Shown here: positions 15,545 to 31,040 of the stretch, piece after piece
Position numbering within the stretch: position 1 is the stretch's first letter
How the letters are laid out: every line of letters starts with the position of its first letter
DNA from: Escherichia coli
Lineage (GTDB): Bacteria; Pseudomonadota; Gammaproteobacteria; Enterobacterales; Enterobacteriaceae
DNA: 51,530 nt
Assembly (NCBI RefSeq): GCF_003334815.1
Contig: NZ_QOWO01000030.1
Strand: one strand, 5' to 3'
Position numbers and translations under genes: made by a program
The notes under the pieces: generated by a model
Databases searched by the model: none
Seen by the model: only the letters and a program-made list of their open reading frames with translations
Told to the model about the DNA's origin: nothing

Positions 15545-15715
15545 CTCTGTCAGGAAGCTTGGATCAACCGGTAGTTATCCAAAGAACAACTGTTGTTCAG
15601 TTTTTGAGTTGTGTATAACCCCTCATTCTGATCCCAGCTTATACGGTCCAGGATCACCGATCATTCACAGTTAATGATCCTTTCCAGGTTGTTGATCTTA
15701 AAAGCCGGATCCTTG

Positions 15716-15724
15716 TTATCCACA
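15716..15724. promoter_or_regulatory. DnaA box R1 (TTATCCACA)
   Basis: Exact consensus 9-mer adjacent to the 13-mer region. Confidence 0.85.
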
Positions 15725-15737
15725 GGGCAGTGCGATC

Positions 15738-15781
15738 CTAATAAGAGATCACAATAGAACAGATCTCTAAATAAATAGATC
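15738..15781. repeat. oriC DNA-unwinding element: three tandem AT-rich 13-mers
   Basis: ctaataagagatc / aatagaacagatc / aaataaatagatc, the reverse complements of the canonical GATCTnTTnTTTT 13-mers. Confidence 0.9.
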
Positions 15782-26024: not shown

Positions 26025-26324
26025 GCGCGTGTGACCCGTCCTGAATAGCGTTCACATAGATCCTGCTGATATAAAACCCCCCTGTTTTCCTGTTTATTCA
26101 TTGATCGAAATAAGAGCAAAAACATCCACCTGACGCTTAAATTAAGGTACTGCCTTAATTTTCTGCAGACAAAAGGCGTGACGATGGTCGAAAATGGCGC
26201 TTTCGTCAGCGGGGATAATCCGTTATTGAACAATTTATCCTCTGTCCATTTCACGATGAAAAAAATGTAGTTTTTTCAAGGTGAAGCGGTTTAAATTCGT
26301 TCTCAAATTACAGTCAGGACGCGT

Positions 26325-27695
26325 ATGTTGAATAATGCTATGAGCGTAGTGATCCTTGCCGCAGGCAAAGGCACGCGCATGTATTCCGATCTTCCGAAAG
26401 TGCTGCATACCCTTGCCGGGAAAGCGATGGTTCAGCATGTCATTGATGCTGCGAATGAATTAGGCGCAGCGCACGTTCACCTGGTGTACGGTCACGGCGG
26501 CGATCTGCTAAAACAGGCGCTGAAAGACGACAACCTTAACTGGGTGCTTCAGGCAGAGCAGCTGGGTACGGGTCATGCAATGCAGCAGGCCGCACCTTTC
26601 TTTGCCGATGATGAAGACATTTTAATGCTCTACGGCGACGTGCCGCTGATCTCTGTCGAAACACTCCAGCGTCTGCGTGATGCTAAACCGCAGGGTGGCA
26701 TTGGTCTGCTGACGGTGAAACTGGATGATCCGACCGGTTATGGACGTATCACCCGTGAAAACGGCAAAGTTACCGGCATTGTTGAGCACAAAGATGCCAC
26801 CGACGAGCAGCGTCAGATTCAGGAGATCAACACCGGCATTCTGATTGCCAACGGCGCAGATATGAAACGCTGGCTGGCGAAGCTGACCAACAATAATGCT
26901 CAGGGCGAATACTACATCACCGACATTATTGCGCTGGCGTATCAGGAAGGGCGTGAAATCGTCGCCGTTCATCCGCAACGTTTAAGCGAAGTAGAAGGCG
27001 TGAATAACCGCCTGCAACTCTCCCGTCTGGAGCGTGTTTATCAGTCCGAACAGGCTGAAAAACTGCTGTTAGCAGGCGTTATGCTGCGCGATCCAGCGCG
27101 TTTTGATCTGCGTGGTACGCTAACTCACGGGCGCGATGTTGAAATTGATACTAACGTTATCATCGAGGGCAACGTGACTCTCGGTCATCGCGTGAAAATT
27201 GGCACCGGTTGCGTGATTAAAAACAGCGTGATTGGCGATGATTGCGAAATCAGTCCGTATACCGTTGTGGAAGATGCGAATCTGGCAGCGGCCTGTACCA
27301 TTGGCCCGTTTGCCCGTTTGCGTCCTGGTGCTGAGTTGCTGGAAGGTGCTCACGTCGGTAACTTCGTTGAGATGAAAAAAGCGCGTCTGGGTAAAGGCTC
27401 GAAAGCTGGTCATCTGACTTACCTGGGCGATGCGGAAATTGGCGATAACGTTAACATCGGCGCGGGAACCATTACCTGCAACTACGATGGTGCGAATAAA
27501 TTTAAGACCATTATCGGCGACGATGTGTTTGTTGGTTCCGACACTCAGCTGGTGGCCCCGGTAACAGTAGGCAAAGGCGCGACCATTGCTGCGGGTACAA
27601 CTGTGACGCGTAATGTCGGCGAAAATGCATTAGCTATCAGCCGTGTGCCGCAGACTCAGAAAGAAGGCTGGCGTCGTCCGGTAAAGAAAAAGTGA
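26325..27695 (+). CDS. glmU: bifunctional GlcNAc-1-P uridyltransferase / GlcN-1-P acetyltransferase GlmU
   Basis: 456-aa ORF; N-terminal nucleotidyltransferase motif ([10 protein letters not shown]) and C-terminal left-handed beta-helix hexapeptide repeats. Confidence 0.96.
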
Positions 27696-27856
27696 TTCTG
27701 GCCGGCTAACCCGGTCACATGGGATGAGGAGATAACATAATCTCCCTCCCACAAGCAGTAACTATAAAAATAACCCCACTCTCTACAAGGCTCGGGGCGC
27801 CCGAAAAAACGGGCATACAGGTTGACCGACAACGATATAAATCGGAATCAAAAACT

Positions 27857-29686
27857 ATGTGTGGAATTGTTGGCGCGATCGCGCAACGTGATGTAGCAGA
27901 AATCCTTCTTGAAGGTTTACGTCGTCTGGAATACCGCGGATATGACTCTGCCGGTCTGGCCGTTGTTGATGCAGAAGGTCATATGACCCGCCTGCGTCGC
28001 CTCGGTAAAGTCCAGATGCTGGCACAGGCAGCGGAAGAACATCCTCTGCATGGCGGCACTGGTATTGCTCACACTCGCTGGGCGACCCACGGTGAACCTT
28101 CAGAAGTGAATGCGCATCCGCATGTTTCTGAACACATTGTGGTGGTGCATAACGGCATCATCGAAAACCATGAACCGCTGCGTGAAGAGCTAAAAGCGCG
28201 TGGCTATACCTTCGTTTCTGAAACCGACACCGAAGTGATTGCCCATCTGGTGAACTGGGAGCTGAAACAAGGCGGGACTCTGCGTGAGGCCGTTCTGCGT
28301 GCTATCCCGCAGCTGCGTGGTGCGTACGGTACAGTGATCATGGACTCCCGTCACCCGGATACCCTGCTGGCGGCACGTTCTGGTAGTCCGCTGGTGATTG
28401 GCCTGGGGATGGGCGAAAACTTTATCGCTTCTGACCAGCTGGCGCTGTTGCCGGTGACCCGTCGCTTTATCTTCCTTGAAGAGGGCGATATTGCGGAAAT
28501 CACTCGCCGTTCGGTAAACATCTTCGATAAAACTGGCGCGGAAGTAAAACGTCAGGATATCGAATCCAATCTGCAATATGACGCGGGCGATAAAGGCATT
28601 TACCGTCACTACATGCAGAAAGAGATCTACGAACAGCCGAACGCGATCAAAAACACCCTTACCGGACGCATCAGCCACGGTCAGGTTGATTTAAGCGAGC
28701 TGGGACCGAACGCCGACGAACTGCTGTCGAAGGTTGAGCATATTCAGATCCTCGCCTGTGGTACTTCTTATAACTCCGGTATGGTTTCCCGCTACTGGTT
28801 TGAATCGCTAGCAGGTATTCCGTGCGACGTCGAAATCGCCTCTGAATTCCGCTATCGCAAATCTGCCGTGCGTCGTAACAGCCTGATGATCACCTTGTCA
28901 CAGTCTGGCGAAACCGCGGATACCCTGGCTGGCCTGCGTCTGTCGAAAGAGCTGGGTTACCTTGGTTCACTGGCAATCTGTAACGTTCCGGGTTCTTCTC
29001 TGGTGCGCGAATCCGATCTGGCGCTAATGACCAACGCGGGTACAGAAATCGGCGTGGCATCCACTAAAGCATTCACCACTCAGTTAACTGTGCTGTTGAT
29101 GCTGGTGGCGAAGCTGTCTCGCCTGAAAGGTCTGGATGCCTCCATTGAACATGACATCGTGCATGGTCTGCAGGCGCTGCCGAGCCGTATTGAGCAGATG
29201 CTGTCTCAGGACAAACGCATTGAAGCGCTGGCAGAAGATTTCTCTGACAAACATCACGCGCTGTTCCTGGGCCGTGGCGATCAGTACCCAATCGCGCTGG
29301 AAGGCGCATTGAAGTTGAAAGAGATCTCTTACATTCACGCTGAAGCCTACGCTGCTGGCGAACTGAAACACGGTCCGCTGGCGCTAATTGATGCCGATAT
29401 GCCGGTTATTGTTGTTGCACCGAACAACGAATTGCTGGAAAAACTGAAATCCAACATTGAAGAAGTTCGCGCGCGTGGCGGTCAGTTGTATGTCTTCGCC
29501 GATCAGGATGCGGGTTTTGTAAGTAGCGATAACATGCACATCATCGAGATGCCGCATGTGGAAGAGGTGATTGCACCGATCTTCTACACCGTTCCGCTGC
29601 AGCTGCTGGCTTACCATGTCGCGCTGATCAAAGGCACCGACGTTGACCAGCCGCGTAACCTGGCAAAATCGGTTACGGTTGAGTAA
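27857..29686 (+). CDS. glmS: glutamine--fructose-6-phosphate aminotransferase GlmS
   Basis: 609-aa ORF starting MCGIVGA (Ntn-hydrolase Cys after Met) with two SIS domains. Confidence 0.97.
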
Positions 29687-29689
29687 TAA

Positions 29690-29720
29690 ATGGATGCCCT
29701 GCGTAAGCGGGGCATTTTTC
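29690..29720 (+). terminator. glmS terminator, which includes the attTn7 insertion point
   Basis: atgccctgcgtaagcggggcat hairpin followed by a T-run within about 30 bp of the glmS stop; in E. coli Tn7 inserts at this position. Confidence 0.8.
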
Positions 29721-29791
29721 TTCCTGTTATGTTTTTAATCAAACATCCTGCCAACTCCATGTGACAAACCGTCATCTTCGGCTACTTTTTC

Positions 29792-29821
29792 TCTGTCACA
29801 GAATGAAAATTTTTCTGTCAT
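29792..29821 (+). promoter_or_regulatory. upstream Pho box pair
   Basis: ctgtcacagaatgaaaatttttctgtcatc contains two CTGTCA half-sites at about 11-bp spacing. Confidence 0.65.
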
Positions 29822-29893
29822 CTCTTCGTTATTAATGTTTGTAATTGACTGAATATCAACGCTTATTTAAATCAGACTGAAGACTTTATCTCT

Positions 29894-29933
29894 CTGTCAT
29901 AAAACTGTCATATTCCTTACATATAACTGTCAC
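29894..29933 (+). promoter_or_regulatory. pstS promoter Pho boxes (PhoB binding sites)
   Basis: ctgtcataaaactgtcat and ttacatataactgtcac, direct repeats of the CTGTCAT Pho-box consensus about 70-100 bp upstream of pstS. Confidence 0.85.
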
Positions 29934-29981
29934 CTGTTTGTCCTATTTTGCTTCTCGTAGCCAACAAACAATGCTTTATGA

Positions 29982-31040
<1,059 letters not shown>

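Follow-up and report, generated by a model that had tools for sequence, protein, structure and literature searches.

The 161 nt that separate glmU from glmS in a 51,530-nt stretch of Escherichia coli DNA (hereafter the window) are almost certainly the 5' untranslated leader of E. coli K-12 glmS, which lies within the glmUS operon and is controlled by the small RNA GlmZ. A first-pass annotation had described this region as a cis-regulatory RNA element rather than empty spacer, and published genetics, pairing prediction and conservation all support that description. GlmS, whose synthesis the element controls, catalyses the first step in making cell-envelope amino sugars. The element has already been characterised in detail on this same sequence: a review (Gopel, PMC4152352) describes an intercistronic region of 161 nt that RNase E cleaves at the stop codon, with a stem-loop that masks the Shine-Dalgarno (SD) sequence, GlmZ pairing from -41 to -19, and two (ARN)3 Hfq motifs. 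Comparison with the E. coli K-12 GlmY-GlmZ-RapZ-Hfq circuit gave the same 161 nt, RNase E site, GlmZ residues, positions -27 and -36, and SD hairpin, with no difference. This is a textbook case of a small RNA that activates the downstream cistron inside an operon, and its rediscovery in K-12 adds nothing new; the residual novelty lies in an order-wide hairpin without a function in the accessible literature (hairpin A) and in the structural conservation of a second one (hairpin B).

In the open reading frame list, glmU (26325-27695, 456 aa) and glmS (27857-29686, 609 aa, beginning MCGIVGA) are both encoded on the + strand and form the glmUS operon. The glmU stop codon (UGA, 27693-27695) and the glmS start codon (ATG at 27857) leave a spacer at 27696-27856 of exactly the 161 nt given in the first-pass annotation; the RNA features placed in this region below all lie on the + strand. 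The gene order, taken from the RefSeq annotation of matching, identical DNA, is atpD-atpC-glmU-glmS-pstS. MG1655 positions 3,889,000-3,938,900 align to the window without gaps at 99.988% identity, with 6 mismatches in 48.7 kb, and judged by its sequence the window is E. coli K-12. All 161 nt of the spacer match MG1655 base for base, and published experiments on E. coli K-12 therefore apply directly; other groups have demonstrated the processing site, the GlmZ pairing, the Hfq dependence and the need for an ARN motif on this same sequence. Of 5,426 complete E. coli genomes, 5,425 carry the spacer, and its records fall into 1,540 at 99% identity or more, 3,867 at 95-99% and 19 at 90-95%.

According to the model that these data support, RNase E cuts between 27695 and 27696 and releases a glmS mRNA with a 161-nt leader from the glmUS co-transcript. 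In this mRNA the ribosome-binding site UCGGAAU (27842-27848) is partly masked by UUGACCGA (27822-27829). When glucosamine-6-phosphate is low, full-length GlmZ accumulates, and Hfq bound to the upstream A-R-N motifs helps the single-stranded GlmZ segments 150-157 and 163-169 to pair with 27828-27835 and 27817-27823, respectively. Pairing with GlmZ extracts the left arm from the masking hairpin, so that the ribosome-binding site is freed, translation rises and the mRNA is stabilised.

RNase E cuts the glmUS transcript directly after the glmU stop codon, between AAAAAGUGA and UUCU (PMC1885654; review PMC4152352), and the RNase E dependence of this processing was shown for E. coli glmUS (PMC1885654). 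The motif is present at 27687-27699, spanning the UGA at the end of the glmU reading frame, and matches the mapped 5' end (PMC1885654). The published cut thus falls between 27695 and 27696, and 27696, the start coordinate in the first-pass annotation, is the first base of the processed glmS mRNA. Processing of the glmUS transcript at this place, as that annotation claimed, was mapped experimentally on the identical K-12 sequence (PMC1885654, PMC4152352). A minor 5' end was reported between CACAU and GGG (PMC1885654), which in the window is between 27720 and 27721. The glmU stop codon itself is polymorphic at window position 27694: this sequence has UGA, and four of the six E. coli variants that were sampled have UAA. 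A long-range pairing of UGAUUCU (27693-27699, at the RNase E site) with GGAAUCA (27844-27850, at the SD) was seen in some folds and rejected as chance: it depends on the 3' end chosen, RNase E removes three of its bases, the UGA to UAA polymorphism common in E. coli breaks a G-C pair, and E. albertii is without the 5' partner.

In the interaction predicted by Urban and Vogel, the glmS leader pairs with residues 150-157 and 163-169 of GlmZ, and the pairing was proven with compensatory mutants, glmS C-27G and G-36C against GlmZ G155C and C165G (PMC2267818). In window coordinates C-27 is C27830, G-36 is G27821, and the published pairing covers -40 to -22 of glmS. The bipartite target lies at 27817-27835, with ACAGGUU (27817-27823) opposite GlmZ 163-169 and GACAACGA (27828-27835) opposite GlmZ 150-157. 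GlmZ is absent from the window in an Rfam scan at gathering threshold, where STnc410 is the sole match; its MG1655 gene is about 73 kb distant, beyond the window. Predictions were therefore made with the MG1655 copy (207 nt, RF00083, 218 bits), MG1655 being 99.988% identical to the window.

Interactions were predicted with a windowed scan corrected for accessibility, in which opening energies were counted for both RNAs. The optimum pairs 27816-27836 (-41 to -21) with GlmZ 149-170 at a hybridisation energy of -19.2 kcal/mol and a total of -11.6 kcal/mol, compared with -2.9 kcal/mol for the next-best GlmZ site within the leader. The predicted pairs are exactly those of the published residues, including G27821 with C165 and C27830 with G155. 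Among the controls, processed GlmZ (1-153) reached at best -2.9 kcal/mol, at an unrelated site in the coding region, and the best total for GlmY was +0.1 kcal/mol; 60 dinucleotide shuffles of GlmZ averaged -3.0 kcal/mol (SD=3.5), with one of the 60 reaching -11.6. When raw hybridisation energy is used, the glmS site is equalled or surpassed as a match to the GlmZ seed region at 70 distinct places on the two strands of the 51.5-kb window, so complementarity alone could not have identified the target, and the weight for it comes from conservation and the published genetics. RNAduplex applied to the whole molecules, leader against GlmZ, returned a meaningless 190-nt duplex, worse than shuffles, and was replaced by the windowed scan. 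The prediction of an RNA-RNA interaction with GlmZ, which the first-pass annotation had put forward as a check, was thus positive at 27817-27823 and 27828-27835 (-11.6 kcal/mol). Its claim that glmS is activated through GlmZ base pairing stands, given compensatory mutants made on the identical sequence (PMC2267818) and a scan that recovers the same pairs. The target is invariant in the six sampled E. coli variants.

The predicted inhibitory hairpin spans 27822-27851 and pairs UUGACCGA with UCGG (27842-27845) and UCAA (27848-27851). It overlaps the SD region UCGGAAU, whose GGA is at 27844-27846 and which is followed by the glmS AUG at 27857-27859 (27842-27859 in all, from sequence and reading frame list). 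Positions -27 and -36 flank the left arm of this hairpin, one base on each side, and the published statement that the inhibitory hairpin is preserved when these two positions are mutated (PMC2267818) fits the left arm as predicted. SD accessibility was computed for the processed mRNA with its 5' end at 27696 and its 3' end set at four positions. UCGGAAU has a mean unpaired probability of 0.42-0.48 in the free leader versus 0.57-0.81 when the GlmZ-paired bases are held open, and the cost of opening 27842-27859 is 3.6-4.6 kcal/mol in the free leader versus 1.2-2.2 kcal/mol when the GlmZ-paired bases are blocked. The predicted unmasking goes in the direction that the model requires, and the effect would be modest. 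In the predicted ensemble the SD is about half occluded, which agrees with the view that some of the glmS mRNA keeps its SD accessible and supports basal translation (PMC4152352). Sequestration of the SD, which the first-pass annotation had proposed to examine by folding, was borne out in part: the masking hairpin was found and blocking the GlmZ site frees the SD, but the hairpin is weak, with a local fold of -3.9 kcal/mol that 15% of shuffles equal, and in that respect is no better than shuffled sequence.

A close parallel in mechanism is the rpoS leader, activated by DsrA, RprA and ArcZ. There too an sRNA binds the 5' side of the hairpin covering the ribosome-binding site, and upstream A-rich (AAN) motifs recruit Hfq; the authors of the glmS studies drew this analogy themselves (PMC3439879, PMC2267818). 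The rpoS leader differs in its sRNAs and target and in a far longer inhibitory stem, whereas the glmS leader is made by RNase E inside an operon and carries a weak mask of -3.9 kcal/mol.

Conservation was examined in 120 glmS loci collected from one-genome-per-species contigs by a degenerate pattern for the conserved glmS N-terminus, a procedure that leaves the leader unbiased; 36 of the loci are from Enterobacterales. In other proteobacteria in which glmU precedes glmS, mostly 1-50 nt separate the two genes; in Enterobacterales the distance is 100-280 nt, except in two reduced symbionts. Joanny et al. noted "some sequence homology" of the region among close relatives (PMC1885654). Across Enterobacterales the 3' 100 nt of the leader form a conserved module which, from 5' to 3', consists of an A/U-rich tract, hairpin A, hairpin B, the bipartite GlmZ target, a hairpin C that E. 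coli and E. albertii do not have, and the SD. RNAalifold on a MAFFT alignment gave the stem of hairpin A alone, hairpins B and C being misaligned by length variation, and stems were therefore counted species by species. The GlmZ target is conserved as CAGGUY-N4-6-GACAWCG in about 32 species. Hairpin C, between the target and the SD, was found in 32 species with 25 different stems, Yersinia, Serratia and Enterobacter cloacae among them, and is missing at the corresponding place in the window (27836-27841). In several genera hairpin C is followed by a U-rich run and looks terminator-like.

Masking of the SD does not follow the same pattern. For most Enterobacterales other than E. coli, nearest-neighbour folding does not join the SD to the GlmZ target, and blocking the target leaves SD accessibility unchanged; no such pairing is predicted for the species that carry hairpin C. 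The sole leaders that behave as the model predicts are those of the E. coli type, with UUGACCGA...UCGGAAUC. Unmasking may therefore be confined to leaders of this type, or it may be poorly captured by nearest-neighbour folding, and the conserved effect of GlmZ pairing may perhaps be more than SD unmasking.

Upstream of the target, two (ARN)3 motifs in the glmS 5' UTR bind Hfq (PMC3439879; PMC4152352). Salim et al. reported that the leader binds both the distal and the proximal face of Hfq and that ARN-2 is essential for activation by GlmZ and GlmY (PMC3439879). Two A-R-N runs can be read in the spacer, AGC-AGU-AAC at 27754-27762 and AAA-AAU-AAC at 27766-27774, and these are candidates for the published ARN-1 and ARN-2, respectively, a coordinate assignment that we infer from the letters. 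An A/U-rich AUAAUAAY tract conserved across Enterobacterales lies directly 5' of hairpin A.

Hairpin A, CCCC-ACUCUCUACAAGGCUC-GGGG (27774-27797), is near-invariant, and it is its 4-bp stem that RNAalifold recovers. Its core, UCUACA(A)RGCUC, is found in 34 of 36 Enterobacterales species, each time as a single copy that lies 80-120 nt ahead of the AUG on the glmS strand, and in none of 85 loci from outside the order (about 1.1 Mb of fetched sequence in all). Invariant and nearly invariant alignment columns cluster in hairpin A, which is more conserved than the GlmZ target. The stem hardly varies and shows almost no covariation; Arsenophonus has CCCA/UGGG instead. Hairpin A matched no Rfam family at gathering threshold or at E ≤ 10. 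A partner for its loop was sought up to 600 nt downstream and 700 nt upstream in 34 species, and no consistent position emerged; a recurring site at +543 was rejected, being a G-rich stretch of glycine codons with ordinary energies, and interaction scans gave no partner in GlmZ or GlmY. The text of the accessible literature, later work on the leader included, yielded neither the sequence of hairpin A nor a function assigned to it, and the hairpin may already appear in published structure figures. Our favoured guess is that hairpin A, which adjoins the AAA-AAU-AAC run taken to be the essential ARN-2, is part of an Hfq-binding platform.

Hairpin B, GCCCG-AAAAAA-CGGGC (gcccgaaaaaacgggc, 27799-27814), has a 5-bp G+C stem, a loop of six A residues and a folding energy of -9.6 kcal/mol that is matched or beaten by 0.7% of 300 shuffles. 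Of 34 Enterobacterales leaders, 31 have a hairpin at this position; the stems come in 20 different sequences, A makes up 82% of the loops, and hairpin B is a real, selected element. The A-rich loop would suit the distal face of Hfq. The first-pass annotation had pointed to short GC hairpins ahead of the glmS ribosome-binding site; the example that it quoted is this hairpin, which is real and conserved at 27799-27814, but which lies 5' of the GlmZ target and outside it and is neither the GlmZ site nor the structure that masks the SD.

Any role for hairpins A and B is reached by reasoning from these patterns, and they raise the possibility, which we consider doubtful, that beyond the GlmZ switch hairpin A, together with the A-loop hairpin B, is a separate and undescribed module, and that the conserved mechanism is more than unmasking of the ribosome-binding site. 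Candidate roles for such a module are a docking platform for Hfq near the GlmZ target or a site for another protein or RNA. The conservation of hairpin A above that of the GlmZ target, its single occurrence per Enterobacterales leader and absence from the 85 outgroup loci, its position against the conserved A/U-rich tract assigned to ARN-2, and the binding of the leader to both distal and proximal Hfq faces (PMC3439879) all point this way, as do the structure of hairpin B, kept through 20 stems with A-rich loops, and the third hairpin that stands between SD and GlmZ target in most species, where the two are not predicted to pair. Against it, hairpin A may already be described (published figures; Kalamorz 2007; Frohlich and Vogel 2009), no partner was found in the scans, stem covariation is almost nil, and the conservation could reflect constraints on an Hfq site known in outline. 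The fuller proposal, that hairpins A and B form an undescribed module of essentially all Enterobacterales that docks Hfq or another factor for GlmZ action or provides a second input, with unmasking as a lineage-specific addition, seems to us unlikely; if it were true, unmasking of the ribosome-binding site in E. coli would be only the lineage-specific part of a conserved mechanism. Hairpin A, and the absence of predicted SD masking from most relatives, could be the starting point of a small mutational study.

The 5' half of the leader behaves differently from this 3' module. Of the two hairpins that adjoin the RNase E site, SL1, UGGCCGG-CUAAC-CCGGUCA (27699-27717, -10.3 kcal/mol, a stability reached by 0.7% of shuffles), comes first, and SL2, GGGAUGAGGAGAU...AUCUCCCUCCC (27720-27751, -15.4 kcal/mol, 0.3% of shuffles as good), follows it; a pair of adjacent stem-loops may aid recognition by RNase E (review legend, PMC4152352). 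The full spacer folds better than dinucleotide shuffles (z = -3.1). Polymorphisms of E. coli in SL1 are in the loop or keep the pairing. SL2 was found in relatives from the Enterobacteriaceae and is absent from more distant Enterobacterales, and the 5' half of the spacer, with the SL1 and SL2 region, is unconserved between genera. All substitutions among the six sampled E. coli variants are at 27681-27747, those of the spacer being at 27694-27747, in or near SL1 and SL2, and none is downstream of 27748, where the sole differences are the lengths of A runs in two loops. In the Enterobacter sp. Ag1 locus the spacer is 279 nt long, enlarged in its 5' half with the conserved 3' module unchanged, and the extra sequence consists of inverted repeats of the CCCUCUCCC/GGGAGAGGG type that resemble inserted REP-like elements.

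This variable half is also where a promoter would lie, if the difference between glmU and glmS were transcriptional and the spacer held an internal promoter or a terminator/attenuator, a reading we hold to be very improbable. One sigma-70-like match was found at 27714-27741, and the residual monocistronic glmS mRNA that persists after RNase E inactivation led the authors to raise a possible glmS-specific promoter (PMC1885654). However, a single match compares with 0.5 +/- 0.6 expected by chance, the scan found no terminator-like site, hairpin B is without a U tract, the promoter-like hexamers fall within the stretch that differs between E. coli strains and is unconserved between genera, and either kind of signal is at odds with the RNase E data (PMC1885654).

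The weakest alternative, that the leader is a GlcN6P riboswitch or ribozyme like the Gram-positive glmS ribozyme with hairpin A in its ligand pocket, could draw on the conserved structured core upstream of glmS at 27774-27814, which has no partner among the sites scanned, yet we give it next to no credence: no glmS ribozyme or other Rfam family beyond the unrelated STnc410 was matched in the window at gathering threshold and none at E ≤ 10 in 27500-28000, matches around the spacer being at chance level only (mir-9412, sucA); neither structural change nor cleavage was seen when the entire intergenic region of E. coli was probed in-line with Glc6P or GlcN6P (personal communication in PMC1885654); PMC7073468 assigns GlcN6P sensing to RapZ/GlmY/GlmZ; and the conserved part is small, with a 4-bp stem. 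The glmS ribozyme (RF00234) resembles the GlmZ-controlled leader in that GlcN6P feeds back on glmS through the 5' UTR, and differs from it in that there is no match in sequence or structure and control in E. coli is exerted in trans via GlmZ.

Beyond the contributions of others, the present analysis establishes the identity of the sequence, the pairing prediction with its controls and the conservation of the leader, and it also placed several neighbouring features in the window. The STnc410 match, an enterobacterial sRNA, is full-length at 26084-26241 on the - strand (188 bits, E = 1e-42) and sits in the atpC-glmU intergenic region, antisense to the glmUS promoter and leader region. The oriC lies at about 15550-15781, between mnmG and mioC, with coordinates transferred from the MG1655 annotation through the gap-free alignment. 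The spacer between glmS and pstS (29687-29999) is 313 nt long, the same length as in K-12, and aligns without gaps. This spacer contains the Tn7 attachment site in E. coli, and its K-12 length without gaps indicates that attTn7 is unoccupied.
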